From Prolixibacteraceae bacterium (GTDB taxonomy: Bacteria > Bacteroidota > Bacteroidia > Bacteroidales > Prolixibacteraceae): a stretch of DNA of 64,000 nucleotides. The notes below the pieces were generated by a model. The model worked only from the letters and a program-made list of their open reading frames with translations. It did no database searches and was not told the origin of the DNA. Both the position numbers and the translations under genes were made by a program. Positions 16,269 to 60,972 of the stretch are shown here, one piece after another. The stretch's first letter is position 1. Each line of letters opens with the position of its first letter. The DNA lies in contig JAIBEZ010000017.1 of assembly GCA_019459485.1 (NCBI GenBank), positions 1,498-65,497 on the forward strand, in the 5' to 3' direction.

Positions 16269-17522
16269 ATGCTGACCGAACGTGAACACATAGGGATTTT
16301 TGGCAAAATGAATTCAGGCAAAAGTAGCCTGATGAATTTATTGACCCAACAGGAAACATCCATTACCGATTCAACTCCCGGCACTACCGCCGATGTGAAA
16401 ATTGCCCTTCAGGAAATTCATGGATTGGGGCCTGTAAAGTTTTTCGATACGGCTGGGCTGGATGAAGGAACACTTCTTGGCGCTAAAAAAAGGGAAAAGG
16501 TGATGAATGTGCTGAAGGAATGTGACCTTGTTTTATTGGTCATCGACCCGTCAACCAAAGTATTTGATTCTGAAAACCAAATTATTGAGGCAGCGCGTGA
16601 GCTTGACAAGCAGATATTGGTTATTTATAACCTGTTTGAAATAGCGGGCAACAGGCTTCCCGATGAAATCGAAACGCAGATTCCTTTGTTGAAATTTATT
16701 CCTTCTATTACCTTATCTGCAATAGACGTTTCGTTCCGACAGTCGCTCCTGAACTTTATTCTTAACAATTATGATCCGAAGTTTCAGAAAACGGACTTAC
16801 TGCCTTTCGTTGAAAAGGATCAGTTTTACATTCTGAATATTCCTATGGATGAAGAAACGCCGCCGGGGCGATACCTCCGTCCACAGGCAATGGCCGAGGA
16901 ATACATTACACGAAACTGGGCATTTCCGATTTCGTACCGGATGAATTTAGGAGTCGCCCGTAGCGAAAACCCGCAGCCGGAAAAAGATCGTTTCGATGCT
17001 TTTCTGAATAGCCTGGGTCGTAGGCCAAAAGCCCTTATTACCGACTCGCAGGCCATGGATATCATGGCAAAATGGACGCCTCCGGATATTATGCTGACCA
17101 CCTTTTCGATCATGATGATCAATTTTATGAGCAAGGGAAGGATTTACGAATTTTATGAAGGCATCAAAGCCCTCGATAAGCTGCAACCCGGCGACAAGGT
17201 GCTGATTGCCGAAGCATGCAACCATTCGCGGATCAACGAAGATATCGGGACTGTACAAATTCCGCGAAAAATTAACCAAACGTTTCCGGGTGTAATCATC
17301 GACCATAATTTTGGCAGGGAATTTCAGACAAACAGCGAATTGGGCAACTACAAACTGATCATCCATTGCGGTGGCTGTATGATCAGTCACCAAAAATTAC
17401 AGGCCCGCCTGCGCGATTTGCGCCATGCCGGTGTTCCAGTAACCAACTACGGGGTGTTTCTTTCGTGGATGCAGGGACAGGCAGCGCTGGAGCGGGTAAT
17501 GGAACCATGGAGAAAAGATTAA
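16269..17522 (+). CDS. hydF: [FeFe]-hydrogenase maturation GTPase HydF family
   Basis: GKMNSGKS, PGTT, DTAG, and C-terminal EACNH...HCGGCM Fe-S motif, VPVTNYG. Confidence 0.88.
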   Translation: MLTEREHIGIFGKMNSGKSSLMNLLTQQETSITDSTPGTTADVKIALQEIHGLGPVKFFDTAGLDEGTLLGAKKREKVMNVLKECDLVLLVIDPSTKVFDSENQIIEAARELDKQILVIYNLFEIAGNRLPDEIETQIPLLKFIPSITLSAIDVSFRQSLLNFILNNYDPKFQKTDLLPFVEKDQFYILNIPMDEETPPGRYLRPQAMAEEYITRNWAFPISYRMNLGVARSENPQPEKDRFDAFLNSLGRRPKALITDSQAMDIMAKWTPPDIMLTTFSIMMINFMSKGRIYEFYEGIKALDKLQPGDKVLIAEACNHSRINEDIGTVQIPRKINQTFPGVIIDHNFGREFQTNSELGNYKLIIHCGGCMISHQKLQARLRDLRHAGVPVTNYGVFLSWMQGQAALERVMEPWRKD

Positions 17523-32360: not shown

Positions 32361-33623
32361 TTACCCTTCGTCACGAATGGCATCAATTGGCTTTATGCTA
32401 ACTGCTCTTTTTGCCGGTATCAGCCCGGCGATTATTCCGGCAACAACCAAAACAGCCAGTGCCGATAGTGCCATCGTGAGGTTTATCTCCGGATTCCGAA
32501 AGAATAATTCGTCACCACCTTTCAGCAATATTTGGTTTAGTATTTCGAGTACGCCAACTCCCAGCGACAAACCTATGTAACCGGCCATTACAGTCAGGAA
32601 TACACTTTCGGCAACAATGTGTTTAATAACTGTTGCCGGAGTGGCACCAATTGCCCGCTGTATCCCGATTTCCTGGGTTCGTTCCTTGATAATTACCAGC
32701 ATGATGTTGCTCACACCAATTACCCCGGCCAGAAGTGTTCCGATTCCAACAATCCATGTCAGACCCTGAATGCCCAGGAATAATGCGCTGAATTTGACGA
32801 ATTCTTTTTCGATGTTGAAGGACCCAATGGCCTGTTGGTCTTCAGGGGCAATTTTATGGCGGTCTTTTAGCAAGGTTTTTAGTTTTTCTTCCAGATCGCT
32901 TACTTTGGTTCCGGGTTTTGATGTTACTGAGAAAAAATATACCCGGTTACCGAAATTATATGCTTTCCGCATGGTTGTAAACGGGATAATGATGGTTTCT
33001 TCTTTTTTGCCACCACCAATATTAATCCTCGTTTCAGCATGAATAACACCCACCACCTGAAAATAAACACCGCTAATTTTCAGGTATTGTCCTATCGGGT
33101 TTTCATCTTTGTCAAACATAACTTCAGCAACACGTTCGCCAATGTTGCAGACTTTTCGTTCCTGAAGCAAGTCAATTTCGTTGATCAATCGACCCTGAGC
33201 CGGAGTCCAGCGATCGATTTTGAAATAGTCGGGATAATCGCCAAACACATTAAATGCACCGGTACGTTCGCCGCGAATGGTATTATTGCCTGTTTGGTTA
33301 TTGCCAAACAATCGGGGCGACAGATATTCTACTTCTTTCACATTGTCGCGGATATAATCGATATCGCTTGTTTCGTAGTTCCAGCGACGGCCCCGTTGAA
33401 ATCCTTCATAAGGCACGCTGGTTCGTTCGGTCCAGAAGAAGGCCGAGTTGGTTGCAAATGCCTTCACTCCGTCAAGTACGCCATTTTCGAGCGCTTTCCC
33501 TGCCCCCGACATGATGACGAGCATGAAAATTCCCCAGAAGACGCCGAAGGCTGTCATAAAACTGCGCAGTCGATTTTTTTTCAGTGCGCTGACTATTTCT
33601 CTCCAAAGGTCTAAATCAAACAT
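32361..33623 (-). CDS. ABC transporter permease (MacB/FtsX type)
   Basis: RSFMTAFGVFWGIF, KERTQEIGIQRAIGA, IPAKRA..PIDAIRDE. Confidence 0.92.
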   Translation of the reverse strand: MFDLDLWREIVSALKKNRLRSFMTAFGVFWGIFMLVIMSGAGKALENGVLDGVKAFATNSAFFWTERTSVPYEGFQRGRRWNYETSDIDYIRDNVKEVEYLSPRLFGNNQTGNNTIRGERTGAFNVFGDYPDYFKIDRWTPAQGRLINEIDLLQERKVCNIGERVAEVMFDKDENPIGQYLKISGVYFQVVGVIHAETRINIGGGKKEETIIIPFTTMRKAYNFGNRVYFFSVTSKPGTKVSDLEEKLKTLLKDRHKIAPEDQQAIGSFNIEKEFVKFSALFLGIQGLTWIVGIGTLLAGVIGVSNIMLVIIKERTQEIGIQRAIGATPATVIKHIVAESVFLTVMAGYIGLSLGVGVLEILNQILLKGGDELFFRNPEINLTMALSALAVLVVAGIIAGLIPAKRAVSIKPIDAIRDEG

Positions 33624-33633
33624 GGCTTTAGTT

Positions 33634-34884
33634 TTATTCGTCGCGCAGGGCAACTATCGGTTTAATACTGGCAGCTCTTTTTGCCGGAATGTAACCCGCA
33701 AACGCACCTGCAATGATGAGCAGCAAAGTGGAATATACGGCAATGTTAATGTCAACAGTAGGGTTCATAAATATGGTTTCGCTCTGGTCGGTAGCCGGTA
33801 CTGCTGATTGCATCATAAAATAGTTGATCATTTCCATCAACCCTGTTCCTAAAACCAGGCCGATGTAACCGGCGATGGTGGTTATCATGATCGATTCAAG
33901 CAAAATCAGGCCAATTACTGACGACGGACTTGCACCGATGGCTTTTCGGATTCCAATTTCTTTGGTGCGTTCTTTTACGACAATCAGCATAATATTGCTG
34001 ACACCCACAATTCCGGCAATCAAAGTACCAATCCCAATGATCCAGATGAAAATTTTGATGGCCTGGAATATTTTCATGGTTTGGATATAATTTTCCAGCT
34101 TGTTATACAATCCAATAGCGCCTTCATCTTTGGGGTCAAATTTATGTTTCTTGCCCAGTGCTGTTCTGATTTGTTCTTCAATAGCCTGGCTTTCTTCAAG
34201 GGTCGAAGCATTTATGGTAAGGGCCAGATTATGAATTTTGTTTGAACCATTAAAAATCATTTGTGCAGTTGAAAGCGGCATGTAGGCATTCCGGTTCCGG
34301 GTTGATCCCGGTTCCGAGCAAATTCCTACAACTTTAAAAGGAACCATATTTATATTTACATACTCGCCCAATGCTGTGGAATCCTTAAAAAGAGCAGTCT
34401 TAATATCAGTGCCGATGACCACTATTTTTCGGTTCTGGAGTATATCAATCTGATTAATGAAACGGCCTTCATTCAGGATAAGATTTTCAACATCTCTTAA
34501 AGCGGGTTGACAGGTTATTGTGGTATATTCTCCCGATTCTTTTCCGTAAGAATACCGGGTGTTTCCCATAAAATACCGGCCTGACGATGCGCCGACTCCC
34601 GAAACTTTTGACACAATATCCTGATCCTGGTTCTGAAAACTGATTGGTCTTCCGGTTTTCATCCCTTCATAAGCAATGGTGGTTTCTCCATTCCAAATCC
34701 ACATGGCGTTTACTGCATCGTTCATAAAGTTTGCAGCTACACCGTTGCTCAAACCGTTTCCGGAACCCAGTAAAATCATCAGCATAAAAATTCCCCAGGC
34801 GACAGAAAATCCGGTGAGGAATGTCCGCATTTTATTTTTTTTGATAGTGGCAAGAATTTCCTGCCAAATGTCAATGTCAAACAT
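33634..34884 (-). CDS. ABC transporter permease (MacB/FtsX type)
   Basis: RTFLTGFSVAWGIF, KERTKEIGIRKAIGA. Confidence 0.92.
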   Translation of the reverse strand: MFDIDIWQEILATIKKNKMRTFLTGFSVAWGIFMLMILLGSGNGLSNGVAANFMNDAVNAMWIWNGETTIAYEGMKTGRPISFQNQDQDIVSKVSGVGASSGRYFMGNTRYSYGKESGEYTTITCQPALRDVENLILNEGRFINQIDILQNRKIVVIGTDIKTALFKDSTALGEYVNINMVPFKVVGICSEPGSTRNRNAYMPLSTAQMIFNGSNKIHNLALTINASTLEESQAIEEQIRTALGKKHKFDPKDEGAIGLYNKLENYIQTMKIFQAIKIFIWIIGIGTLIAGIVGVSNIMLIVVKERTKEIGIRKAIGASPSSVIGLILLESIMITTIAGYIGLVLGTGLMEMINYFMMQSAVPATDQSETIFMNPTVDINIAVYSTLLLIIAGAFAGYIPAKRAASIKPIVALRDE

Positions 34885-34894
34885 GGCTTCAGGA

Positions 34895-35620
34895 TTAAGC
34901 GGTTTCGAGTCCGTGGATGTATTCTTTCTGGAACTGTTTTAGTTCGCCGTTGCGGATAATTTCGTGAATCCGTCCGTCGTTCAACCTGATGATCTGACTC
35001 GTCATGGCAGCAATGTCGTGTTCATGGGTAACAATGATTACGGTTATCCCGTCATCGTTAATTTCTCGCAGGATGTCCATTACTTCATAAGAGTTTGCTG
35101 AATCCAACGCTCCGGTAGGTTCGTCAGCCAGAATTATTTTTGGTTGCGAAATCAAGGCACGTGCAATGGCTACGCGTTGTTTTTGTCCTCCCGACATTTC
35201 GTTCGGCATGTGGTTCGCCCATTCTTTTAAACCTAATTTATCGAGGTATTCCAATGCAATCAGATTACGCTTTTTCCTTGGAACTCCCTTATAATAGAGG
35301 GGAAGCGCCACATTTTCCATCGCGTTTTTAAACGAAATCAGGTTGAACGACTGAAATACGAAACCGACCATTTCGTTTCTAAGCTTGGCGGCTTTTTTTT
35401 CGCTCATGTTCGCAATAAGATTGCCTGACAAATGGTAAGTACCGTTGTCATAATTGTCGAGCATCCCCAAAATGTTCAAAAGGGTTGACTTCCCTGAACC
35501 AGAGGAACCCATGATGGAAACAAAGTCGCCCTGTTCTATATGGAGGTCGATACCTTTCAGAACATGGAGACTACTGCTTCCCATCTCATAGGATTTGTGA
35601 ATGTTGTTTAATCTGATCAT
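34895..35620 (-). CDS. ABC transporter ATP-binding protein (MacB/LolD type)
   Basis: Walker A GSSGSGKS, MSGGQKQR signature, ILADEPTGALD; start at MIRLNNIH. Confidence 0.95.
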   Translation of the reverse strand: MIRLNNIHKSYEMGSSSLHVLKGIDLHIEQGDFVSIMGSSGSGKSTLLNILGMLDNYDNGTYHLSGNLIANMSEKKAAKLRNEMVGFVFQSFNLISFKNAMENVALPLYYKGVPRKKRNLIALEYLDKLGLKEWANHMPNEMSGGQKQRVAIARALISQPKIILADEPTGALDSANSYEVMDILREINDDGITVIIVTHEHDIAAMTSQIIRLNDGRIHEIIRNGELKQFQKEYIHGLETA

Positions 35621-35822
35621 GGCATTGTTTTCTGTTAGTTTTCTGTTCAAAATTCGGTAATAATGGTTTTTCGATCTCATTTATTTCGATGAATCGTCGG
35701 TTTCGATCTGTAAAACGGTTAAAAAGTCAGTTTTAACGGAATAAACACGCACAAAACACCGGTAAATTAAAATTGCTGACCATTCTGTTTTCTGTTTCTG
35801 AATTTTCTTTACACCGAAGTAT

Positions 35823-40601: not shown

Positions 40602-41243
40602 TTAAAACTCAAGTCCGCCAAAGAATTCAGGAACATGAAAGCTGGGCTTTTCAGTTTTTATTTTGGTCCATGAAATGAAATGAGGAACAGATAGTTCGTC
40701 GCCGCATTTGTAAAAGTTTCCACGCATTTTCTTTCCCTGTATCAGTTCCAGGTTATGCTTAAAAAATACATTCCAAGGAATCGCAATTGTAATTTGCCAT
40801 TCGGTGGTTTCTTTTTGTTCCGGGAAAGTTGATTCACCCAAACAGGAAATTCTGCGGATTGTAGCAATTTGCTTATCTGTTGCATGAATTGCCGGCTCGC
40901 CATTTTTCCTGAAGCCAAGCAAAATCGTTCCAATACAGTTTATTTCCAGGTTGTAGTATTCGTCATTTCCTTCAGGGGAAAGAAAAAACTCGACACAACT
41001 GTCGGTCCAAACCCGCCCGTTACTTTTTGCAACTTCAGCTTTTACCGACTGTTCGATCACCTGATACTTCAGAAACAGTTCATTTTCGTTGTATGCAATT
41101 TGAACCGAAACTTCTGGTTTATAGGGGAATTCATTCCAGTTCACCATTTCGAGCTGAAGAGGTTGAATTTCAAGATCTAGTGTTTCGGTAACCAGTTCCA
41201 AAGGTGGATTGGAAAAACCGGGTAATATTTCTGGTACTTTCAT
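40602..41243 (-). CDS. CBM9-like (DOMON-like) carbohydrate-binding protein
   Basis: VWTDSCVEFF, YYNLEINCIGT, GNFYKCGD, FHVPEFFG; start at MKVPEIL. Confidence 0.8.
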   Translation of the reverse strand: MKVPEILPGFSNPPLELVTETLDLEIQPLQLEMVNWNEFPYKPEVSVQIAYNENELFLKYQVIEQSVKAEVAKSNGRVWTDSCVEFFLSPEGNDEYYNLEINCIGTILLGFRKNGEPAIHATDKQIATIRRISCLGESTFPEQKETTEWQITIAIPWNVFFKHNLELIQGKKMRGNFYKCGDELSVPHFISWTKIKTEKPSFHVPEFFGGLEF

Positions 41244-41310
41244 TGTCTTAAATTTGTTGTCAGTATTTTCAATATTTATGTTTTGATAGTTTTCTGGAAG
41301 AGGACTTAAA

Positions 41311-42405
41311 TCAGGCCAGCTTAGCAGCAACAGCGCGCACAATCCTGCACATTTCATCATATTGATCCTCCATACTTGTTAATAGTTTATACTGTGCAAG
41401 GGTGCGCTGATAATTGTGCTCCGGATGTTTGATTTTGTAATATTTGTCGCCGTCGATATAATCCATCAAAAATCGAAGCACCTGTTCATAGGTTATATAT
41501 TTGGCCGAAAATGCGAGGTATTCAAGTTCTTTTTCGTTCAGGAAACCAATCGTTTCTGAAAGATATCCCTGGGTAAAACCTTCGAAAATCCGGATATCGG
41601 ACGATACATTGTTCAGGTCAACGTCATCTTCCTCGCCTGAATTGGTATAGGAGCGCATCGCATCACCAAAATCATTCAGGCAGGTACTGTTCAGAACCGT
41701 GTCGAGGTCGATCACACAAAGCACTTCGCCATTTTGATCGAATAAAATGTTGTTTATTTTGGTGTCGTTGTGAGTAACACGGGTCGGAATTTCGCCGTTT
41801 TCAACCAGTTTCCAGAAATTGAGCATTTCTTCTCGACGGCTTTCAACCCAGTCAATTTCTTTACCAAGTTTTGCTTTTCGTCCAACCGGATCGGCAGCCA
41901 GAACTTTGTCCCATTGCCCAAAACGGTAGCGGATGTTGTGGAATCCGGGCAAAATATCGGTCAGTGGTTCGTTCAAATCAGCCACCATCGACTGGAATTT
42001 ACCGATTCCTTTTCCGCCCTGAAAAGCCAGTTCAGGAGTTTTAGCAGCCTGATAGGTAATGGTATTGGCAATAAAAATGCAAGCCGCCCAAAATTCGTCT
42101 TCTTCATCCTTAAAATAAAGTTTGCCATCGGTTGCAGGAACTACTGTCATCACTTCGCGCAAAGGATCACCGTTCCGGGTAATCACTATCTCCTTCATGT
42201 GAGTAGTAACTTTCTGAATATTTTCCATCATTGCCGGAACATTGGTGAAAATGCGCTTGTTTTTCCGCTGCAAAAGATAATCAGGAGTACTTTTTTCGAG
42301 GGTGCGAATGATAAAGGTATCGTTGATAAATCCTTCACCCATCTGTTCTACCTTTTCAACTTTTCCATCAAGTTGAAAACTGGCCGCTATTTGTTCAAGG
42401 TTCAT
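41311..42405 (-). CDS. Aminoglycoside-phosphotransferase-fold sugar kinase (NahK-like)
   Basis: GFINDT, RVTHNDTKINNIL, VIDLDT, DFGD. Confidence 0.85.
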   Translation of the reverse strand: MNLEQIAASFQLDGKVEKVEQMGEGFINDTFIIRTLEKSTPDYLLQRKNKRIFTNVPAMMENIQKVTTHMKEIVITRNGDPLREVMTVVPATDGKLYFKDEEDEFWAACIFIANTITYQAAKTPELAFQGGKGIGKFQSMVADLNEPLTDILPGFHNIRYRFGQWDKVLAADPVGRKAKLGKEIDWVESRREEMLNFWKLVENGEIPTRVTHNDTKINNILFDQNGEVLCVIDLDTVLNSTCLNDFGDAMRSYTNSGEEDDVDLNNVSSDIRIFEGFTQGYLSETIGFLNEKELEYLAFSAKYITYEQVLRFLMDYIDGDKYYKIKHPEHNYQRTLAQYKLLTSMEDQYDEMCRIVRAVAAKLA

Positions 42406-42431
42406 AAATTAAAATTTAGCTTTTGGAGTTC

Positions 42432-42439
42432 CAAAGGTA
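42432..42439 (-). promoter_or_regulatory. Primary-sigma -7 element for the kinase gene
   Basis: TACCTTTG on the minus strand. Confidence 0.55.
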
Positions 42440-42566
42440 TGTTTCATTTAAATGTTAAAACAAATAAATTGCTCATCTTTTGATCGATTTGTGATTTATT
42501 GCGGATTCAACCTTTTGCAATGCTTTTCTTTTTCCCTTCCAGGCATTGCTGTCCTTGTATTTTTAT

Positions 42567-42574
42567 TAATTTTG
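42567..42574 (+). promoter_or_regulatory. Primary-sigma -7 element for the cytochrome operon
   Basis: TAATTTTG 43 nt upstream of the start. Confidence 0.5.
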
Positions 42575-42616
42575 GACGACCTAATTTGAATTTAATAACA
42601 ACAAACCAAACCCTCT

Positions 42617-44146
42617 ATGCTGAAGAAGACAGGAGAATTTCTCCGCAAACGAATATTTTTCCTTTTATTTATTTCGTTTGCAATCGGAATTTTAGCTGCC
42701 GTTACTGGCAATAAAGCTGTAGAATATACTTCAACCGACGAATTTTGTGCTTCATGCCACGTTCATCCGCATGTATTTGAATCATGGAAACTTTCTACCC
42801 ATTACGATAATAAAGGTGGTATTCAGGTTCATTGTGTCGATTGCCATCTTCCGCCCAAAGGAGAAGGTTATCTTTATCAAAAAGCAAGGTTAGGAATCAA
42901 GGATATTTACGGAGTTCTGTTCAAAGATTCGGCGGATTTCAACTGGGAAGCCAAACGTACAGTTGAAAAAGCACAACATTTCACCTTCAAAGCCTCGTGT
43001 GTGAAATGCCATGCCAACCTTTTCCCGTTAAAACTGAACAAGGAAGGACAAGACGCGCACCTTTATTATACCCAAAACGAAGCAACGCTCGAATGTATCA
43101 ATTGCCACCTGAACGTGGGTCATTACGATCCGAATGCCATCCACGCCAGTAATTCCGATTTTGGAAAAGGGTCAGGAGTAAATCAAGTGGTTTATACCGA
43201 AGCAACGAAAGTGGAAAAATTCGCCAATTTTACTGAATTGATCCCCGGATCGACCATTTCGTTCAGCATGATTGCCATTCCGGGCGGAAAATTCAAATTG
43301 GGAAGTCCGGAAAATGAGCCCTATCGCCGACCAGATGAAGGCCCGGTAAAAGAGGTTGAAATCAGTCCGTTCTACATGGCTGAGGTGGAAGTTACCTGGG
43401 ACGAATTTTTGGTTTTCTATAGCCAGACCGGAGGAGAAGGACGCACCACCGACATAAAAGCTGCGCCCGTTGCCGGAGAGGTTGATGCCATCAGCGGACC
43501 AACCCCACCATACGGTCAACCGGACCAGAACTGGGGAATGGGAAATCGCCCGGCGATTACAATGCGTTATGCCACTGCCGAAACATATTGTGAATGGCTG
43601 TCGCTTAAAACAGGCAAAAAATACCGGCTGCCTACTGAAGCTGAATGGGAATACGCCTGCCGAGCCGGATCACAAACTCCGTATTTCTTTGAAGGCGATC
43701 CGAAAAAATACTCAAAAGACCGTTTGATGAATAAAATATTTGGCGCCGATACCACCAACATTGACCGATACGTTATTTATTCAGGAAACAGCATGGCCAA
43801 AACACAAAAGCCGGATGCAGTAAAACCGAACCCGTTTGGTCTGAGAAATATGCTCGGAAATGTTGCTGAATTTTGTGCCGACTGGTATGCTCCGGATGCC
43901 TATTCGGCATTGAATGATGGTGTTAAAGATCCAAAAGGCCCTGCGTCAGGAACAGAACGTGTGATTCGCGGAGGCTCGTTTAAAAGTGAACCGACTGAGG
44001 TTCGCAGCGCTGCCCGTGATTTTACACAAGACGAAACATGGATGAGAACCGATCCGCAGATACCAAAAAGTATTTGGTGGTATTCTGATTGTAACATGGT
44101 TGGATTCCGTGTTGTTTGTGAACTGGATGAAACTACCGGCAAATAA
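42617..44146 (+). CDS. NapC/NirT-type tetraheme cytochrome c fused to an FGE/SUMF1-like domain
   Basis: N-terminal TM, YTSTDEFCASCH plus CVDCH, CVKCH, CINCH; then IPGGKFKLGS, EVTWDEF, YRLPTEAEWEYACRAG, NMLGNVAE, RGGS. Confidence 0.88.
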   Translation: MLKKTGEFLRKRIFFLLFISFAIGILAAVTGNKAVEYTSTDEFCASCHVHPHVFESWKLSTHYDNKGGIQVHCVDCHLPPKGEGYLYQKARLGIKDIYGVLFKDSADFNWEAKRTVEKAQHFTFKASCVKCHANLFPLKLNKEGQDAHLYYTQNEATLECINCHLNVGHYDPNAIHASNSDFGKGSGVNQVVYTEATKVEKFANFTELIPGSTISFSMIAIPGGKFKLGSPENEPYRRPDEGPVKEVEISPFYMAEVEVTWDEFLVFYSQTGGEGRTTDIKAAPVAGEVDAISGPTPPYGQPDQNWGMGNRPAITMRYATAETYCEWLSLKTGKKYRLPTEAEWEYACRAGSQTPYFFEGDPKKYSKDRLMNKIFGADTTNIDRYVIYSGNSMAKTQKPDAVKPNPFGLRNMLGNVAEFCADWYAPDAYSALNDGVKDPKGPASGTERVIRGGSFKSEPTEVRSAARDFTQDETWMRTDPQIPKSIWWYSDCNMVGFRVVCELDETTGK

Positions 44147-44194
44147 ATAGTAAAATTTATAAACCAAATTGAATATTATAAAACTAAAGGAACC

Positions 44195-45547
44195 ATGAGT
44201 GAATCAAATTTTTCGAGAAGGAAATTCCTGGCAAATGCTGCCGCTATAAGCGCAGTGGGTGTCATTGGTGTTAATGCTTTGAGTTCATGTGCAGGCCCTA
44301 AAAAACCTGAAGTAGTATTAAATCTGCCACCTCTTTTGGAACTGGCACCAGATGGCGCTCCCCTGAAAGTTGGTATTATTGGCTGTGGTGGCCGTGGATC
44401 GGGCGCCATGATCGACTTCCTGAATGCTGGTCCAAACCTGAGCGTTCATGCGCTTGGCGATACCTTTCTGGACAATATCACCGCCTGCCGTGAAAAGTTG
44501 AAAAATGAAAAAAACATGGAAGTTGCCGATGAAAATGTATTTGTTGGTTTCGATGCTTATGAGAAAGTACTTGACTCTGGTGTTGACGTGGTAATTCTGG
44601 CTACTCCTCCTCATTTCCGTCCAATGCATTTCGAAGCGGCTGTTCAGGCACGCAAACATATTTTCATGGAAAAACCGATTGCTGTAGATCCGGTTGGTAT
44701 CCGCTCGATCATGGCTTCAGCAAAAAAAGCTGAACCACTCGGTCTTAAAATTGTAACCGGAACGCAACGCCGTCACCAGCTTGATTATGTTGAAATTTAC
44801 AAACAGGTGATGAATGGTGCAATTGGCGATATTGTTTCGGCAAATTGCTACTGGAATCAGAATCAGTTGTGGTACCGTAATCCAAAAGCTGAATGGTCGG
44901 AAATGGAATACATGATCCGCGACTGGGTAAACTGGTTGTGGTTGTCGGGCGATCACATTGTTGAGCAGCACGTTCACAATATTGATGTAATTACCTGGTT
45001 TACCGGAAAACATCCGACCAAAGCGGTTGGTTTTGGTTCCCGTCAGCGTCGTGTAACCGGCGATCAATACGATAATTTCAGTGTTGATTTTGTTTATGAT
45101 AACGGAATGCACATGCACAGTATGTGTCGTCAGATCAACGGAACTGCAAACAATGTTTCCGAATTTATCATGGGAACCAATGGTTCTTCAAACTGTAAAG
45201 ACAAAATATGGGATGCAAAGGGCGTAGAAAAATTTGCATACGCATATCCGCTTGATGATAAAGGACAACCGATGAAGAGTGTAAAAGTTAGTCCTTACGT
45301 TCAGGAACACATTGACCTGGTAACCTGTATCCGCCAAAACATTCCTGTAAACGAAGCAGAGCAGACGGCCATTTCGAACATGACTGCCATTATGGGCCGC
45401 GTCTCGGCTTACACCGGAAAAGAAGTTACATGGGACGAAATGATGAACTCTGACATGAAGCTCGGCCCAACAACTTACATCATGGGTTCGGTTGGAATCG
45501 TTGGAACTGCTCAGGTAGCAATTCCGGGAGAAGAGAATAAAGCTTAG
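44195..45547 (+). CDS. Gfo/Idh/MocA oxidoreductase, Tat-exported lipoprotein
   Basis: SRRKFL Tat motif, LSSC lipobox, GIIGCGGRG, ATPPHFR, MEKP. Confidence 0.9.
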   Translation: MSESNFSRRKFLANAAAISAVGVIGVNALSSCAGPKKPEVVLNLPPLLELAPDGAPLKVGIIGCGGRGSGAMIDFLNAGPNLSVHALGDTFLDNITACREKLKNEKNMEVADENVFVGFDAYEKVLDSGVDVVILATPPHFRPMHFEAAVQARKHIFMEKPIAVDPVGIRSIMASAKKAEPLGLKIVTGTQRRHQLDYVEIYKQVMNGAIGDIVSANCYWNQNQLWYRNPKAEWSEMEYMIRDWVNWLWLSGDHIVEQHVHNIDVITWFTGKHPTKAVGFGSRQRRVTGDQYDNFSVDFVYDNGMHMHSMCRQINGTANNVSEFIMGTNGSSNCKDKIWDAKGVEKFAYAYPLDDKGQPMKSVKVSPYVQEHIDLVTCIRQNIPVNEAEQTAISNMTAIMGRVSAYTGKEVTWDEMMNSDMKLGPTTYIMGSVGIVGTAQVAIPGEENKA

Positions 45548-45548
45548 T

Positions 45549-45618
45549 GATTGCAGATTAACGATTTTTGATTGAAGATTTTAAATCGTTAATCAACAAT
45601 CGTTAATCAGTAATCGTT
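45549..45618. repeat. 7-nt periodic inverted micro-array (GATT x5 then AATC x5)
   Basis: GATT at 45549/56/63/70/77 and AATC at 45584/91/98/45605/12, all in one 7-nt register. Confidence 0.85.
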
Positions 45619-45631
45619 AATTTTTTAAGAT

Positions 45632-46543
45632 ATGACAATCAACAGAAGAAATTTTCTGGGAACGGCTGTTTCCGGTGCTGCATTGGCTGCATCGGGCGGC
45701 CTTTTCTCTTCTTTCAGGAGCGAATCGGAATCTCAGGCTGGTAAAAAGAATTCCACAAAATTGAAAATATCGTGTCAGGAAGGTGTTGCCCCAGGCAAGT
45801 CGCTGGCCGAAAAACTCGATTTTATGGAATCTCTCGATATTGTCGGGCTTGAGATTTGGGGTGGAGGCCTTGAAAAAAGAGTAAGTGAAATTCAACAGGC
45901 TTTGCAGAACCGCAACATGAAAGTGAGTGCGATTTGTGCAGGCTTTGATGGCTGGCTCATTGCCGATGATCCTTCTATTCAGAAAAAATGCATGGATTCG
46001 TTGAAGGTGATCATTGGTGCGGCTGGCGAACTGGGTTCTACCGGTGTCATATTTGTTCCGGCATTCAACAACCAGAAATCGCTGCCAGACAAAGAAGCAC
46101 GCGAACTTTTGATTGGCCAGATGAAAGAACTGGGCGATTATGCACTTCAACGCAATACCAGAATATTACTCGAGCCTTTGAACCGTGAAGAGTGCTATTT
46201 CTGCCGTCAGGTGGCTGATGGCGCAGCCATCGTTCGTGATGTCAATTCTGCAGGTGCCGCCGTGATGGGCGATTTTTGGCACATGACCTGGGAAGAAACC
46301 AATGACCGTGCGGCTTTTCTTGCAGCAGGCGATTATTTGCGGCATGTGCACATTGCCAGTCGCAAAAGACGCAAAATGCCCGGAGAAGACGGCGAAGCAG
46401 ATAATTACATCAACGGTTTCCGCGGACTGAAGGAAATCAATTATCAGGATTATGTGAGCTTTGAATGTGGTTCGGTGGGAGACGCGAAAGATACTTTGCC
46501 AGCCGCAGTAAAACTGATGCGCGAACAATGGAAGAAAGCGTGA
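45632..46543 (+). CDS. Tat-exported xylose-isomerase-like TIM-barrel protein (sugar isomerase/epimerase/lyase)
   Basis: NRRNFL Tat motif; metal ligands in LEPLNR, GDFWHM, HVHIAS, SFEC. Confidence 0.88.
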   Translation: MTINRRNFLGTAVSGAALAASGGLFSSFRSESESQAGKKNSTKLKISCQEGVAPGKSLAEKLDFMESLDIVGLEIWGGGLEKRVSEIQQALQNRNMKVSAICAGFDGWLIADDPSIQKKCMDSLKVIIGAAGELGSTGVIFVPAFNNQKSLPDKEARELLIGQMKELGDYALQRNTRILLEPLNREECYFCRQVADGAAIVRDVNSAGAAVMGDFWHMTWEETNDRAAFLAAGDYLRHVHIASRKRRKMPGEDGEADNYINGFRGLKEINYQDYVSFECGSVGDAKDTLPAAVKLMREQWKKA

Positions 46544-46604
46544 AAGGAAAGTGTTCAGTGGTCAGTCGCAGTTTTTAGTATTCAATTAAGGGCTGTATAG
46601 AATT

Positions 46605-46644
46605 TAAAACCCCCGGTTTCGAATGAAGCCGGGGGTTTTATTTT
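46605..46644. terminator. Intrinsic terminator
   Basis: TAAAACCCCCGGTTTC / GAAGCCGGGGGTTTTA plus T run. Confidence 0.8.
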
Positions 46645-46715
46645 GGTTTGAATTGATTTCAAATGGAATTTATGATATGAAAAAGAAAAACGAACAATAA
46701 AGAAATTGATATTTT

Positions 46716-47039
46716 TTATGCTTTTATAGTTCCTTTATACAATTGGCTGACAGGGAAGATTAAATCCCAATTTTCGCCCCAGACAAGATTTCCTGCTTCA
46801 ATTTTAAATTGTTTAAAAAGTTCGATCTCCTTGTATTTGTTGTGTTGTGGGTGTGGCCGTTTTTCAAGAAAATTGCCAAAATCAACGGTTTTAACGGAAT
46901 GGTCATTAAACTCGATTTCAATTTTATATCCATCAATATAACGAGCTTTTTCAACCTGAATTGGTTTCAGACCTATCTGATCTTCCGGGTTATTTTTTCG
47001 TTTTTTGGTTCTATTTTTAGTAGATAAAATTGCGTCCAT
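46716..47039 (-). CDS. DUF2442 family protein (putative antitoxin); start uncertain
   Basis: ARYIDGYKIEIEFND..VDF..FKQFKIEAGNLVW; homologous region seems to begin at CTG 46970. Confidence 0.75.
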   Translation of the reverse strand: MDAILSTKNRTKKRKNNPEDQIGLKPIQVEKARYIDGYKIEIEFNDHSVKTVDFGNFLEKRPHPQHNKYKEIELFKQFKIEAGNLVWGENWDLIFPVSQLYKGTIKA

Positions 47040-47278
47040 TTTTCAACGATTTTAAGATAATAAGCAAAAACAAATTTTTCAATATCCTTTCGGTAGGACG
47101 GAGGTATAGGTTTTGATCCAGTTGATCGCTTGAATTTAATGTTTACAAGCTTTCCTTCCGAAATTTCGAGTTCAATAACCGATTCGTATTCTCCATAACG
47201 CGCATGAACGTGTAAAGGTTTGTGGTCGTTGGAATAAAAGAAGAATATGAATCCTAAGTATTCAAAAATTTTTGGCAT
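46973..47278 (-). CDS. DUF4160 family protein (putative toxin)
   Basis: MPKIFEYLGFIFFFYSNDHKPLHVH; paired with DUF2442. Confidence 0.8.
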   Translation of the reverse strand: MPKIFEYLGFIFFFYSNDHKPLHVHARYGEYESVIELEISEGKLVNIKFKRSTGSKPIPPSYRKDIEKFVFAYYLKIVEKWTQFYLLKIEPKNEKITRKIR

Positions 47279-47345
47279 CTCATAGATTGGCTTTTGATGA
47301 AACAAATCTAGTCATTTTTTGAAGGATTTTTTGTTAGCTATTCTC

Positions 47346-50198: not shown

Positions 50199-50543
50199 TC
50201 AGGCGTTTAACAGATCCTGCTGACTCATTAATACATCTTTAATGATTGCATTGATCGATCGACCAGTCATTTGTGCTTTCAGTGCCAATTTACTGTGTAT
50301 CTCAGATGGAATTCTGATATTAAGTGATCCACTGTATGGTTTTTGAGGTTTTTCACCCCGATCAATGCAACTTTCGAGGTATAAGTCTATCCCAGTCTCA
50401 AAATCAGCTTTCAATTCCTCCACAGTTTTGCCCTCATAAGTAATAAGGTTTTTATTCATACCGATTACCTTACCGAACAGGCAGTTGTCCTCTTCGCTGT
50501 ACTCTACAGTTCCTGAATAACCTTTATGTTTTAATGTTCCCAT
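50199..50543 (-). CDS. hicB: HicB family antitoxin
   Basis: YSGTVEYSEED..LFGKVIG..YEGKTVEEL..KPYSGSLNIRIPSEIH. Confidence 0.92.
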   Translation of the reverse strand: MGTLKHKGYSGTVEYSEEDNCLFGKVIGMNKNLITYEGKTVEELKADFETGIDLYLESCIDRGEKPQKPYSGSLNIRIPSEIHSKLALKAQMTGRSINAIIKDVLMSQQDLLNA

Positions 50544-55029: not shown

Positions 55030-55064
55030 AGCAGGGGGCAGATCATAGCACTCTGCCCCCTGCT
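55030..55064. terminator. 13-bp hairpin between convergent genes (terminator or REP)
   Basis: AGCAGGGGGCAGA / TCTGCCCCCTGCT. Confidence 0.65.
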
Positions 55065-57462
55065 ATTCGTACCTCAACACTTCTACCGGATTTTTCGATG
55101 CAGCCTTAAAACTTTGCCAGCTAACGGTGAGCAATGCAATTCCCAGAGTCAGCAAACCGGCCAGCGCAAAAATCCACCAGCTTAGGTCGGTTTTGTACGC
55201 AAAGTTTTCGAGCCAACGGTTCACCACGTACCAGGCAACAGGAATGGCGATTACAAATGCAATTACTACCCATTTTATGAAAGTCAGGTTGATTAAATGA
55301 ATAATCTGACCAATGTTTGCGCCGTTTACCTTTCTTAAACTGATTTCTTTTTTGCGTTTTTCGAGGTAAAACAAAATAAGGCCGTACAAGCCAATTGTGG
55401 CAATTCCGATAGAAAGCAAAGTCAGCCAAACGTACAATTTGCTGAACCGGCTGTCGGATTCGTACTGCCTGTTAAATTGCTCGTCGGCTAAAGCGAAATC
55501 GAAATTATCTTTCGGGTAGTGGCGTGTCCAGGTAGTTTGCAGCCTGCTCAGTGTTTCCTGTAAATTTTGCGTGTTTATCCTGACCGAAAAATAACCAAAC
55601 TCGCTTGGGAAACGGTTATTCCAGATGATCGGGTAAATGGCTTTGTGCAATCCTTCGTGATGAAAGTCGGCCACCACGCCTTCAATCTTCAGTGGAGTGG
55701 TGATATTTTCCTTCCTGAAAATTTCTTTGCCAACAGCTTCTTCAGGAGAACCGAAACCCAGCAGTTTCATGCTCGATTCGTTCAAAATAACACGGTTCAG
55801 ATTTTGTGCTTCGTTCTCGCTGAAATCGTTTCCTGCCAGCAATTTCAGCCCGTAAGTTTTAATAAAACCGCGACCGGCGTTGTTCTCCAGAATCTGGTTG
55901 TCGGGCGATTTTCCTTGCATAGGGTTATTAAATTCGCGGAATCCGAACCCCGGCTCCTGGCCTGGCACAAATTGGTTAAAAGTTACACCTTCAACACTGG
56001 TCTGACTTTGGAGATCGCTGCGAAAACCTTCGTAACGCTTCCGCTTGTTGCCATCGGCATTCAGCGATGCCGGTCCGGTCAATACCACCACATCATTCAG
56101 CGCCACGCCCAAATCTTTGTTTTTCATGAATGAGATTTGCTTGTAAACCACCAGTGTGCCGATCAGGAAAATGATTGAAAGCGCCATTTGTACAACCACC
56201 AGTCCGCTCTTTAGCTTTCCGCCTCCAACATGTTTCTGGTCGGGTAAAATTTTAATTCGTGTCAGCTCAATTCCATGGTACATTCCTGAAAAAAATATTC
56301 CTCCTGAAACAGTGAGTACAGAAATGAGAATAACATACCCGATCGGGATATGAGCCTGGTTAACCGGAATGTTAAAAACCGAAGCAACAGAATTCTGCAG
56401 AATAAAATAAAGCAGAAAAGAGATGACCAATGCGGCGATATTCAGAATAGAACTTTCGGCCAGAGATTGGTGCCAGAGATGAAAATCGGAAGCGCCGATT
56501 AATTTGCGAGTGCGAATTTGGACCGATCGCGACTGGGCGTGTGCCACCGAAAGGTTCACGTAATTGATCCAGGCGATGAAAAGGGTAATTACCGCAATTA
56601 CTATCAGGTTGATGAGCGACGAATAGTTTGTAATGGCGCCCATTTCGCCCTCTATTCCCTGAATAAAATGCAGTTTTTTAAGTGGTTGCAATGAATATTT
56701 TGCGTCGCGTTTGTCTTCGGCCAGAAAACCCATGTACGACTGTATGAAACTATTGATTTTGGTTGTCGTCAATTCCGGCGAACTTCCGTCTTTGAGTCTG
56801 ATGTAATTCCACCAGCCATTCCATCGCCAATCGCCCTCAGCGTTGATAGCGCCCATTTCGACCCAGGTTTTTACCGAAACAAAATACTGTGCCTGCAAAT
56901 GCGTGTTGGGTGGCAAATCCTTGAAAACGCCGGTTATTTCAATGGGCATTCCCTGGTTTACACCCATAATTTTGCCAATCGGATTTTCATTTCCGTAGAG
57001 TGCTTTGGCGCAGGTTGCCGAAATAACACCGGTTCGCGGCCTCGAATAATCGCCAATTCCCTCGATCATTTCAAGCGGAAAGACTTTTTCAAAATCTTCG
57101 GAAACCCACAATATATCCTGATTGGCAATGTTTCGGTCCTGATAACTCACCAGACATTTTTCGAAATAGGCCAATCCATTGGCTTCAATTTCGGGGATTT
57201 CACGTTTCATGGCAAAAAACAAAGCCCGTGGAGTTTTGGCCCCGTGATAAATGGACTGCCCTTCTTTTTCAACTTCCAGGTTGACACGGTAAACATTTTC
57301 TGATTTTTGAAAAAATGAGTCGTAAGAAAACTCAAATAAAATGTAGTGAACAGCAAATAAAAACGAGGTCAGTCCGGCAATCAGTCCGATCAGGTTGATA
57401 ACACTCATGTGTTTGTATTTCAACAAGCTTCGGAAGGCAGAGATGAAAATTATTCTTAGCAT
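55063..57462 (-). CDS. Large ABC permease (two FtsX/MacB units)
   Basis: INLIGLIAG, WINYVNL, KEISLRKVNGA, NPVEVLRYE. Confidence 0.9.
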   Translation of the reverse strand: MLRIIFISAFRSLLKYKHMSVINLIGLIAGLTSFLFAVHYILFEFSYDSFFQKSENVYRVNLEVEKEGQSIYHGAKTPRALFFAMKREIPEIEANGLAYFEKCLVSYQDRNIANQDILWVSEDFEKVFPLEMIEGIGDYSRPRTGVISATCAKALYGNENPIGKIMGVNQGMPIEITGVFKDLPPNTHLQAQYFVSVKTWVEMGAINAEGDWRWNGWWNYIRLKDGSSPELTTTKINSFIQSYMGFLAEDKRDAKYSLQPLKKLHFIQGIEGEMGAITNYSSLINLIVIAVITLFIAWINYVNLSVAHAQSRSVQIRTRKLIGASDFHLWHQSLAESSILNIAALVISFLLYFILQNSVASVFNIPVNQAHIPIGYVILISVLTVSGGIFFSGMYHGIELTRIKILPDQKHVGGGKLKSGLVVVQMALSIIFLIGTLVVYKQISFMKNKDLGVALNDVVVLTGPASLNADGNKRKRYEGFRSDLQSQTSVEGVTFNQFVPGQEPGFGFREFNNPMQGKSPDNQILENNAGRGFIKTYGLKLLAGNDFSENEAQNLNRVILNESSMKLLGFGSPEEAVGKEIFRKENITTPLKIEGVVADFHHEGLHKAIYPIIWNNRFPSEFGYFSVRINTQNLQETLSRLQTTWTRHYPKDNFDFALADEQFNRQYESDSRFSKLYVWLTLLSIGIATIGLYGLILFYLEKRKKEISLRKVNGANIGQIIHLINLTFIKWVVIAFVIAIPVAWYVVNRWLENFAYKTDLSWWIFALAGLLTLGIALLTVSWQSFKAASKNPVEVLRYE

Positions 57463-57506
57463 TGGTTTAGGTTTGAGTTTACTGCTATAAAGCTATAAAC
57501 TTTACC

Positions 57507-58427
57507 TTACCTTCGACCTGGATTATTCTGATCATTTCTGTTTCCACTGCTATTTCTTTGACTTTCAGTATTACTGTTGCTCCTCCGGGGAGTTTCGGTT
57601 GAATTTTGAATTCGCATTTGTCTGTCTACCTTCACTGGCTGACCAATGGGTACGCCGTAATAGTTTGTGTCGTGAGTTCTTCTTGTCTCCGGTGCTTTGG
57701 CAGGTTGCGGGCGGGAAGTATTATCAGTGCTCTTAGTGGAATTTAATCTGTTATTTTCGTTTTCAGTCTGTCTGTTTACCGGACTGTTAACTGGATTTTC
57801 TGCCCGATTGGCGTTATTGTTCCGGGAATTGTTGTTGGCAGAACTGTCAGTGGATTGTCTGCTGATGCCGGAATTATTCATATTCCTTTGTTGCTGACGG
57901 TCTTCTTTCGAGTATCTGAACTGACGGCCGGCTCTCAGATTTTCATCATTCCAGTTCCGTGCCCGGTCTCTTTCATTCTCTGACCAGTAAATTGCACTGC
58001 TGCTATTTTCGTTAAATCCTCTTACATAAGCAAAATTACTGCGATCGTAATAATCGCGATAGTAATATCTTGGAAAATGCGAAATATAATACTGGTGATG
58101 CATCCAGGGTTGATACATATTCGAATTCACTACGACAATAAAAGAATTATTCAGATTAAAATCCGGGTATATAGTAGGGAGATAAGGTGAATAAATCCAT
58201 TGTGCATGGTTCAGAAAAATAAATTCACGGGTGTAAATGTCGTAATAGCTTTCGATGTCGGGCAAATAGTAATAGCGTGTTCCGCCATAATAGGATGGAG
58301 CCCATTGCGGATTTTCATAATTGGTTTGTGATCCGTAAGTTCCCTGGCGGTAGGTATTACATCCGTTAAATGAGGTCATGGAAAGAAGCACAACAGCTAC
58401 TACCACCCATTTTTTAAATTTTTTCAT
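57507..58427 (-). CDS. Hypothetical lipoprotein, Tyr-rich core and R/N/S/Q-rich disordered tail
   Basis: Lipobox FNGC; PQWAPSYY..RYYYLPDIESYYD. Confidence 0.7.
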   Translation of the reverse strand: MKKFKKWVVVAVVLLSMTSFNGCNTYRQGTYGSQTNYENPQWAPSYYGGTRYYYLPDIESYYDIYTREFIFLNHAQWIYSPYLPTIYPDFNLNNSFIVVVNSNMYQPWMHHQYYISHFPRYYYRDYYDRSNFAYVRGFNENSSSAIYWSENERDRARNWNDENLRAGRQFRYSKEDRQQQRNMNNSGISRQSTDSSANNNSRNNNANRAENPVNSPVNRQTENENNRLNSTKSTDNTSRPQPAKAPETRRTHDTNYYGVPIGQPVKVDRQMRIQNSTETPRRSNSNTESQRNSSGNRNDQNNPGRR

Positions 58428-58536
58428 TTGTTGAGTTATTTAAAACAATCACAGGTAAAAGTAAGCTCAACATCACGCAAAATTTTTACATATTTCCTTT
58501 TAAAAATTACATAATTCACACATCAGTAAGTTCACA

Positions 58537-58564
58537 GTAGAGACAAGGCATGCCTTGTCTCTAC
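58537..58564. repeat. Perfect 28-bp GTAG-type REP palindrome
   Basis: GTAGAGACAAGGCATGCCTTGTCTCTAC. Confidence 0.88.
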
Positions 58565-60948: not shown

Positions 60949-60972
60949 GATTCCATTGTTTTACTTCATTTA

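Follow-up and report, generated by a model that had tools for sequence, protein, structure and literature searches.

Bacteroidota, Planctomycetota and Verrucomicrobiota have genomes that abound in oxidoreductases of the Gfo/Idh/MocA superfamily exported by twin-arginine translocation (Tat). Among them are the enzymes with which gut Bacteroides begin to break down glycans and glucosinolates by the 3-keto-glycoside route. For BT2158 it has been proposed that the enzyme passes through Tat with its nicotinamide cofactor already bound, on the model of Z. mobilis GFOR; the re-oxidation of its bound cofactor was left open by the authors, and Liu et al. 2021 postulated an unidentified second sugar substrate (PMC8121099). 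The BT2156-BT2160 cluster has no cytochrome, BT2160 being a SusR-family regulator and neither a cytochrome nor an FGE protein, and LacABC is a cytochrome-c-dependent dehydrogenase that is unrelated to ThuAB according to Liu et al. Here we describe a locus in a 64,000-nucleotide stretch of DNA from a Prolixibacteraceae bacterium (contig JAIBEZ010000017.1; the whole stretch is called the window below), where a Gfo/Idh/MocA gene directly follows a gene, the fusion gene, that joins a NapC/NirT tetraheme cytochrome to a domain with the fold of SUMF1, the formylglycine-generating enzyme (FGE). The locus is a candidate answer to cofactor recycling in a compartment free of nicotinamide adenine dinucleotide (phosphate), NAD(P): a purpose-built flavin-heme relay that leads to the quinone pool. 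With a probability that we put at roughly 0.55, the fusion protein is the membrane-bound electron-acceptor subunit of a periplasmic sugar-oxidizing system, passing electrons through flavin mononucleotide (FMN) and hemes to menaquinone.

The flavin in this proposal draws on the work of the ApbE transferases, which take FMN from flavin adenine dinucleotide (FAD) and attach it to extracytoplasmic proteins, on the Thr or Ser that ends the motif D-x-x-[S/T]-G-A-[S/T] (PMC12052999, PMC8238504). Substitution of the Gly or Ala of this motif brings flavinylation down to ∼50% without abolishing it (PMC12052999), and the flavinylated relays connect electron carriers of the membrane with redox enzymes of the periplasm (PMC8238504, PMC12052999). 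In a text search of selected flavinylation papers the FGE-sulfatase fold was not among the substrates, and literature searches for FGE/SUMF1 together with NapC or tetraheme cytochromes, Gfo/Idh/MocA, flavinylation or ApbE found nothing relevant. No paper on the architecture described here, or on the trio of genes that contains it, was found; where this null rests on the name Gfo/Idh/MocA it is weak, because the slash-written form may escape searches.

Architecture of the fusion protein

An initial annotation of this DNA had described an N-terminal membrane anchor and four CxxCH motifs followed by a full FGE-fold domain that lacks the catalytic Cys pair, and both halves are borne out by the profile searches. 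Pfam Cytochrom_NNT matches the N-terminal half with an E-value of 2.2e-31 (109.4 bits against a cut-off of 24.1), and Pfam FGE-sulfatase (PF03781) matches the C-terminal half with an E-value of 6.5e-43, covering profile positions 4-240 of 255. A basic N-terminus, MLKKTGEFLRKR, precedes the membrane segment, which has a mean Kyte-Doolittle hydropathy of 2.5 and is the sole segment of the protein above 1.6; the remainder of the fusion protein downstream of this anchor thus probably faces the periplasm. Together with the c-type heme motifs, the anchor suggests that the FGE-like domain is extracytoplasmic.

To homologues the architecture is common property. We searched 5.8 billion proteins, which gave more than 7,900 matches, and examined the best 120: nearly all are full-length (∼505-530 amino acids, with few truncated fragments) and 63-100% identical to the window's protein. 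The two-domain architecture is shared by more than 100 full-length homologues, whose hosts are mostly Prolixibacteraceae and other Bacteroidota, including the cultured Gaoshiqia and Sunxiuqinia with complete isolate genomes; NCBI labels them 'SUMF1/EgtB/PvdO family nonheme iron enzyme'. In addition, the domain junction is crossed by independent metagenome contigs (42724-43905 and 42923-44932) and by a metatranscriptome contig (43145-43510). The number of homologues and the DNA and RNA contigs that span the junction together exclude an assembly artefact, one of the objections that had been foreseen for this fusion. Another, that the homologues would prove to pair with nitrate or nitrite reductases, has likewise fallen away: no nitrate, nitrite or trimethylamine N-oxide (TMAO) reductase was found in the window, by a Pfam scan of nearly all open reading frames (ORFs) of at least 150 amino acids and several shorter ones, or in the annotated homologue loci, and the absence of nitrate and nitrite reductases nearby had already been noted. 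The same scan found no cytochrome c maturation gene in the window.

An exhaustive search of representative proteins added few full-length homologues (P0123-P0125 and P0170) and was dominated by multi-repeat FGE proteins. Some of the latter (P0121, P0122 and others) are public-metagenome proteins of 1,000-4,400 amino acids with up to 19 tandem FGE-sulfatase domains.

Gene neighbourhood

The fusion gene is the first of three genes that are read in the same direction and end at a strong intrinsic terminator (Table 1). The Gfo/Idh/MocA gene starts 48 nucleotides 3' of the fusion gene, and a gene for a xylose-isomerase-like TIM barrel begins 84 nucleotides after the Gfo gene. In a soil metatranscriptome, contigs of close relatives extend over the three genes, with a depth of nearly zero outside 42544-46575, and one RNA contig spans the gap between the Gfo and TIM-barrel genes. 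Contig depth is 0 over the bin 42400-42543 and 15 over the next one, 42544-42687; at the terminator it drops from 118 to 6. Ahead of the first gene, TAATTTTG fits the -7 element of Bacteroidota, TAnnTTTG, and probably serves as the promoter element of the fusion gene.

The partner protein carries a twin-arginine motif (SRRKFL), a GxGxxG Rossmann motif and the motif EKP. It scores below the NCBIfam cut-offs for BT_2158_fam (30.4 against 750 bits) and IolG (68.6 against 355 bits), so that it belongs to the Gfo/Idh/MocA superfamily only and has no named equivalog. A lipobox-like LSSC follows SRRKFL (residues 1-35, window 44195-44300), and the partner may accordingly be a Tat-exported lipoprotein tethered to the membrane rather than a soluble enzyme. 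The TIM-barrel protein, a relative of keto-sugar epimerases, matches PDB entry 3kws with an E-value of 2e-113, and its nearest characterized relative in the PDB is the 3-keto-D-glucoside 4-epimerase 6wn6 (3e-23).

The pairing of the fusion gene with a Gfo gene is constant. A Gfo orthologue lies directly 3' of the fusion gene in all 11 fusion loci with downstream DNA, namely the window, three complete or long assemblies (L081-L083) and seven loci from a genome collection (L001, L002, L004-L008). Over their full length, the orthologues of the genome-collection loci show 48-61% identity. The TIM-barrel gene is also found downstream in L005 and L006, but the genes past the pair vary by locus, indicating that the conserved unit consists of the fusion gene and the Gfo gene. 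In L007, from an Acidobacteriota metagenome-assembled genome (MAG), the ApbE gene (4891-5809) and the Gfo gene (7705-8850) are split across reading frames; these splits are likely long-read assembly errors rather than signs of pseudogenes.

The FGE-like half of the fusion protein belongs to a wider subfamily that is recognized by two sequence features. The first is a loop of the invariant form D-A-[IV]-[ST]-x-P-[TS]-x-P-Y, which reads DAISGPTPPY at residues 290-299 of the window's protein; the second is the C-terminal signature DPQxPKSxWW, which generic FGE loci lack. Both recur, at 36-44% identity, in proteins of Planctomycetota, Verrucomicrobiota, Acidobacteriota, Gemmatimonadota and aerobic Bacteroidota. 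Some of these relatives are standalone secreted proteins of 300-400 amino acids with signal peptides (Pedobacter, Flavobacteriaceae, Chitinophagaceae and Planctomycetota), while others are fused to one or two monoheme PSCyt1 domains (L010, L014, L018, L019, L025 and L027, in Verrucomicrobiota and Acidobacteriota). By the Rosetta-stone argument, the fusion of one FGE-like module to two unrelated c-type cytochromes speaks for a cytochrome as the protein with which it works directly. Some Planctomycetota copies (L020, L022, L029 and L031) have the variant loop D-A-I-T-[AS]-P-[TS]-x-L-Y, and tandem duplicates of subfamily genes occur in a Pirellulaceae locus (L020, 5770-8417) and in Fimbriiglobus (L028, 1367-3654).

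We compared the neighbours of 41 informative subfamily loci with those of 40 generic FGE-domain loci in the same scan. A Gfo/Idh/MocA orthologue (29-61% identity) adjoins 29 of the subfamily loci and none of the generic ones (Fisher p = 1.3e-12), and the adjacency of unfused and PSCyt1-fused relatives to Gfo genes spans at least five phyla. Among the loci without Gfo, no redox gene stood out in the ORF lists of L010, L012, L019, L020, L029 and L031, for which translated N-termini only were read. In a further such locus, from a Flavobacteriaceae MAG (L016, 6972-7514), a YceI-like protein is encoded between the FGE-like gene and ApbE; the YceI fold binds polyisoprenoids or quinones.

The second neighbour is ApbE. 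It lies within ∼2.7 kb in 15/41 subfamily loci from five phyla, compared with 0/40 generic loci (p = 1.3e-5), and four of these ApbE proteins were confirmed by Pfam with E-values of 1e-66 to 1e-77. The arrangements differ: the Pedobacter cassette runs FGE-like/Gfo/ApbE/aldose epimerase, a Bryobacteraceae chromosome (L027) has the tight operon Gfo/PSCyt1-FGE/ApbE, and in the Acidobacteriota locus L007 the order is ApbE/NapC-FGE/Gfo, with ApbE directly upstream of the fusion gene. Moreover, in four loci (L009, L016, L022 and L044) ApbE stands beside the FGE-like gene with no Gfo gene in flanks of 1.2 to 5.9 kb, which makes the FGE-like protein the common denominator. The canonical motif D-x-x-[S/T]-G-A-[S/T] is absent from the ORFs of at least 100 amino acids in L009, L016, L022 and L027. 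The cassette ApbE proteins of seven loci from different phyla (L025, L028, L007, L026, L034, L024 and L016) are 39-50% identical to that of L009 and only ∼23-27% identical to the Pedobacter cassette ApbE, which hints that a dedicated ApbE clade travels with the FGE-like gene.

The FGE-like domain and its loop

We aligned the domain with the copper enzyme of T. curvata (tcFGE, 6s07) using HMMER. Ser457 occupies the position of the copper ligand Cys269; the alignment stops at residue 458, so that the second ligand, Cys274, is without an aligned counterpart. Since residues 451-467 contain no Cys at all, the catalytic Cys pair is absent. A residue count finds no His anywhere in residues 191-509, and the fused and standalone clades have just one conserved Cys in common, Cys325. 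We therefore rejected the reading of this domain as a copper or non-heme iron enzyme, and the 'nonheme iron enzyme' of the database name is probably a misnomer. The surroundings have changed as well, Trp228 of tcFGE being replaced by Ala417 and Trp108/Trp109 by Pro298/Tyr299 in the alignment, while the FGE core motifs RLPTEAEWE and GNVxE(W/F) are kept.

The AlphaFold2 (AF2) model of residues 193-509 has a predicted template-modelling score (pTM) of 0.81. Confidence is low only in two stretches, residues 273-313 with the motif loop and residues 482-487 in the C-terminal signature; as weak evidence, this pattern fits elements that a cofactor or partner would order. A full-length model built from a shallow alignment had a mean pLDDT of 43 and was not used for the fold search, for which we took the FGE-domain model alone, built from a deeper alignment. 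Foldseek ranked PvdO (5hha) first, with an E-value of 2e-17 and a TM score of 0.75 on the target; FGEs came next (E ∼1e-15), and the SUMF2 and PorK structures ranked lower, well below PvdO. NCBIfam points the same way: the PvdO profile (NF051459) scores 2.7e-32 (112 bits, below its cut-off of 500), and the PorK/GldK profile (TIGR03525) scores 97 bits, below its cut-off of 350. No type IX secretion ring genes (porL/M/N) adjoin the fusion gene, and no sulfatase adjoins the FGE-like gene in the window or in loci L081-L084. The closest relatives of the domain are thus PvdO and the true FGEs, and the GldK/SUMF2 type, with which it had been compared in the initial annotation, is more distant.

The loop that marks the subfamily resembles the ApbE target motif. 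In the window it reads D290-A-I-S-G-P-T296 and fits 4/5 of the specified motif positions, and three fusion orthologues have the exact motif (DGITGAT in L004, DAISGAT in P0124 and DAITGAT in P0125). The final residue is Thr or Ser in the ∼280 subfamily sequences inspected. In relaxed form the motif occurs once in the 23,495 amino acids of the window's ORFs, and only in the fusion protein; the sole SGA-type string of the Gfo partner is GSGAM in the GxGxxG loop of its Rossmann fold, which lacks the terminal Ser/Thr. Generic FGEs have a missing or different loop, with DAVVPEA in tcFGE and ECIAGK- in PvdO at the same place.

Residues 289-299 map to Met99-Trp109 of tcFGE by the HMMER alignment, with the motif loop at 100-106. 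In tcFGE, Met99 and Ala101 belong to the lining of the substrate dell, and Trp108/Trp109 touch the proline of the substrate and the network of waters in the active site (PMC6676471). Thr296 corresponds to Ala106 of tcFGE, which places it at the edge of what was once the pocket for substrate and copper. To judge from motif, position and gene neighbours, whether FMN is covalently bound to Thr296 is an even bet.

The cytochrome domain

The cytochrome half carries the motifs C44ASCH, C73VDCH, C128VKCH and C160INCH, all four invariant in 118 of the 120 best homologues, and heme is presumably attached at these sites. Two further residues that are invariant among homologues, Lys89 and Asp96, align with the K and D of the NrfH string 'KAIAGARD', a pair that belongs to the quinol-binding site of NrfH near heme 1. 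The NCBIfam equivalog cut-offs are missed in each case: TorC scores 80 against 478 bits, NrfH 73.5 against 134 and NapC/NirT 69 against 311. Heme 1 reads CASCHVHPHV (residues 44-53, window 42746-42775), and the form CxxCH[VIT]HPH is kept at this place in 118/120 homologues. In NapC, NrfH and CymA the heme 1 motif is CxxCHxM, so that the heme nearest the quinone may have different axial ligands in the fusion protein.

Proposed mechanism and alternative explanations

How could an NAD(P)-dependent enzyme turn over in the periplasm? We propose the following sequence of events. The Gfo enzyme would be exported folded by Tat with its NAD(P) bound, and would oxidize a hydroxyl group of a sugar or glycoside, probably to a keto-sugar that the TIM-barrel epimerase/isomerase of the third gene could then convert. 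Because there is no free periplasmic NAD(P)+ pool, the bound NAD(P)H would have to be re-oxidized in place. An ApbE-type flavin transferase would have attached FMN to Thr296 of the copper-less FGE fold; this tethered FMN would take two electrons from the dehydrogenase, re-oxidizing the bound NAD(P)H, and hand them singly to the four c-type hemes of the NapC/NirT domain, which would reduce menaquinone at the membrane surface. With potentials of -320 mV for NAD(P)H and ∼-74 mV for menaquinone, flow toward menaquinone is favoured. We infer the contact between the Gfo enzyme and the fusion protein, the direction of flow, the substrate and the attachment of FMN. The less specific claim, that the fusion protein is the electron-transfer subunit of a Gfo dehydrogenase linked to the quinone pool, we consider likely. 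Extended to the whole subfamily, the proposal makes the FGE/SUMF1 fold a new class of ApbE-flavinylated redox domain that re-oxidizes the NAD(P)H of Gfo enzymes and feeds cytochromes c; this extension is tentative, its chances being slightly below even. It would involve three cytochrome arrangements: a fused NapC/NirT domain, fused PSCyt1, and a separate cytochrome in Pedobacter and related aerobes.

Several observations weigh against the flavin-heme relay. An adjoining Gfo gene is absent in 12/41 subfamily loci. No ApbE match was found in the window, so that a housekeeping ApbE elsewhere in the genome must be assumed, and ApbE adjoins only 1/11 of the fusion-type loci. The motif of the window carries Pro where the canonical one has Ala, most unfused relatives (D-A-V-T-R-P-T) are without the Gly, the motif was relaxed after the sequences had been seen, and the AF2 model is of low confidence in this very loop. 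On the chemical side, it would be unusual for NAD(P)H bound to one protein to pass a hydride to a flavin carried by another. Finally, NapC/NirT proteins are classically quinol oxidases, so that reverse flow is conceivable.

If the loop carried no flavin, the FGE-like domain could be a passive adaptor that docks the Gfo enzyme or a sugar without any cofactor, leaving the dehydrogenase to pass electrons directly to heme. Cys-less FGE folds are familiar as binding modules (PorK/GldK, SUMF2 and the immunity proteins of type VI secretion systems), the domain has no conserved set of metal-binding His/Cys, and synteny with Gfo suits docking equally well. However, such an adaptor leaves unexplained the linkage to ApbE (15/41 versus 0/40), the pairs of ApbE and FGE-like genes that lack Gfo, and the restriction of the final motif residue to Thr or Ser. 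It also meets an obstacle in established chemistry, because a two-electron hydride donor needs a converter from two-electron to one-electron transfer before the hemes. We regard this explanation as unlikely. Of the initial suggestion that the FGE-like domain docks a periplasmic enzyme or sugar and wires it to the respiratory chain, the link to an enzyme stands and has become specific, given the Gfo neighbour in 11/11 loci, whereas the notion of an inert scaffold is probably wrong in view of the ApbE linkage and the motif.

A second explanation keeps the components of the flavin-heme relay and reverses the current: the cytochrome would oxidize menaquinol and send electrons via the FGE-like domain to the Gfo enzyme, which would reduce a keto-sugar or other acceptor. 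The characterized NapC, NrfH, TorC and CymA are mostly quinol dehydrogenases, the Lys and Asp of the quinol site are kept, and the host seems to be anaerobic or fermentative, with HydF encoded in the window. Nevertheless, electrons would face a steep climb from menaquinol (∼-74 mV) to NAD(P)+ (-320 mV), and the potentials of ketone/alcohol couples are likewise lower than that of menaquinone; in addition, there are unfused and PSCyt1-fused relatives in aerobes, whose high-potential cytochromes c accept electrons and do not donate them. Reverse flow appears a shade less probable still than a passive adaptor.

It is also conceivable that the FGE-like pocket is itself a catalyst in the manner of PvdO, oxidizing a small molecule such as an enediol or aromatic product of the neighbouring enzymes, with the hemes as electron sink and the Gfo enzyme as a mere pathway neighbour. 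PvdO, which NCBIfam names dihydropyoverdine dehydrogenase, is both the nearest named family and the nearest structure, and the old substrate pocket has been remodelled, not destroyed. Yet the 112 bits of that family match fall far short of the cut-off of 500, PvdO is without the subfamily loop motif, no pyoverdine genes were found in the window or the annotated homologue loci, and the linkage to ApbE would still want a flavin target. On balance a PvdO-like role is improbable. An assembly artefact is refuted by the complete Gaoshiqia and Sunxiuqinia genomes among the more than 100 homologues and by the independent contigs across the junction, and a subunit of nitrate or nitrite respiration, for which only the family-level, sub-cut-off likeness to NapC, NrfH and TorC speaks, is refuted by the lack of any such reductase in the window or the annotated homologue loci.

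Features and other genes of the window

The coordinates of the features discussed above are collected in Table 1.

Table 1. Features of the fusion gene and its operon, in window coordinates.
Feature	Position	Strand	Basis or remarks
Putative -7-like promoter element TAATTTTG	42567..42574	+	∼45 nt 5' of start codon; letters read directly
Fusion gene, NapC/NirT + FGE-like	42617..44146	+	ATG ORF, 509 aa
NapC/NirT tetraheme domain, residues 11-173	42647..43135	+	Pfam PF03264
N-terminal transmembrane anchor, about residues 12-31	42650..42706	+	Hydropathy
Heme motifs 1-4	42746-42760, 42833-42847, 42998-43012, 43094-43108	+	CxxCH
Lys89 codon; Asp96 codon	42881-42883; 42902-42904	+	Both residues invariant among homologues
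FGE-sulfatase fold domain, residues 217-470, PvdO-like	43265..44026	+	Pfam
Near-canonical flavinylation loop D290-A-I-S-G-P-T296	43484..43504	+	Motif of PMC12052999
Degenerate FGE active-site stretch RGGSFKSEPTEVRSAAR, residues 451-467	43967..44017	+	Alignment to tcFGE 6s07
C-terminal signature DPQIPKSIWW, residues 479-488	44051..44080	+	Invariant in fused and standalone clades (general form DPQxPKSxWW)
Tat-exported Gfo/Idh/MocA oxidoreductase, 450 aa	44195..45547	+	Pfam PF01408, PF22725, PF02894; TIGR01409 Tat signal
Tat-signal (NRRNFL) xylose-isomerase-like TIM barrel, 303 aa	45632..46543	+	Pfam AP_endonuc_2 1.5e-32
Intrinsic terminator	46605 to about 46640-46650	+	16-bp stem with 8 G-C pairs, then T run

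Upstream of the operon and divergent from it, at 40602-42405 on the minus strand, lie genes for an APH-family kinase-like protein (364 amino acids) and a CBM9_2 carbohydrate-binding protein (252 amino acids), which are probably unrelated to the operon because they are absent beside the cassette in other genomes. Directly after the terminator, overlapping genes for DUF4160 (110 amino acids) and DUF2442 (107 amino acids) proteins occupy 46716-47305 on the minus strand, followed at 50199-50543, on the same strand, by a HicB-family antitoxin-like gene of 114 amino acids, for which no HicA was called at an ORF threshold of 80 amino acids. Also on the minus strand are two MacB/FtsX-type permeases and an ABC ATPase (32361-35680), beside HlyD and an outer-membrane efflux protein, and three tandem MacB/FtsX-type permeases of ∼795 amino acids each within 55063-63360. 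HydF, the maturation GTPase of [FeFe]-hydrogenase, is encoded at 16269-17522 on the plus strand; it points to a host that lives anaerobically or by fermentation, as would suit an entry point of the NapC type that is linked to menaquinone.

Significance and comparison with known systems

What is new here is a variant of the respiratory-chain-linked periplasmic dehydrogenases. That the system also provides a general answer to the recycling of periplasmic Gfo/Idh/MocA enzymes, together with a new class of flavinylated domain, is possible, though we would not give it quite equal odds. If the proposal is correct, periplasmic sugar oxidation conserves energy, the FGE fold joins the substrates of ApbE, and an undescribed entry point to respiration exists across Bacteroidota, Planctomycetota, Verrucomicrobiota, Acidobacteriota and Gemmatimonadota. 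Thousands of proteins named 'SUMF1/EgtB/PvdO family nonheme iron enzyme' would then be misnamed and would now have a function, and the two genes would offer a compact module with which NAD-dependent dehydrogenases could be connected to electrodes or respiratory chains.

It is instructive to compare the locus with systems that resemble its parts. PvdO, a periplasmic FGE-fold protein that is required for the oxidation of dihydropyoverdine, is like the FGE-like domain in being periplasmic and Cys-less and in its implication in an oxidation; it differs in having no cytochrome fusion, no D..S.PT loop and no DPQxPKSxWW tail. SUMF1 and the FGEs share the fold and the core motifs, and they are set apart by their copper-binding Cys pair, by Trp228 and Trp108/Trp109, and by their sulfatase neighbours. 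The combination of a Gfo/Idh/MocA dehydrogenase with a xylose-isomerase-like TIM barrel is found in E. coli YcjS/YcjR and in Bacteroides BT2156-BT2159, and 3-keto-glycoside routes that depend on a cytochrome are represented by LacABC and ThuAB.

The ApbE-flavinylated relays (NqrC, RnfG, PplA, the FMN-bind domains of UrdA/fumarate reductase, DUF2271 and DUF3570) have in common with the subfamily an extracytoplasmic location, a motif of, or close to, the type D-x-x-[S/T]-G-A-[S/T] that ends in Thr, and, in part of the subfamily loci, clustering with apbE (PMC8238504, PMC12052999). The fusion protein departs from them in its carrier fold, FGE-sulfatase (PF03781), in its Pro for Ala, and in that its flavin is a predicted one.

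In overall design the fusion protein is most readily set beside TorC/DorC. TorC is among the best NCBIfam matches for residues 14-189 (1.5e-22), and both proteins have an anchored N-terminal tetraheme NapC/NirT domain, a C-terminal periplasmic domain and an adjoining gene for a Tat-exported partner. In contrast, the C-terminal domain of TorC/DorC is a monoheme cytochrome where the fusion protein has an FGE fold, the partner there is a molybdoenzyme where here it is an NAD(P)-type Gfo/Idh/MocA oxidoreductase, and in the fusion protein electrons probably flow toward the quinone.

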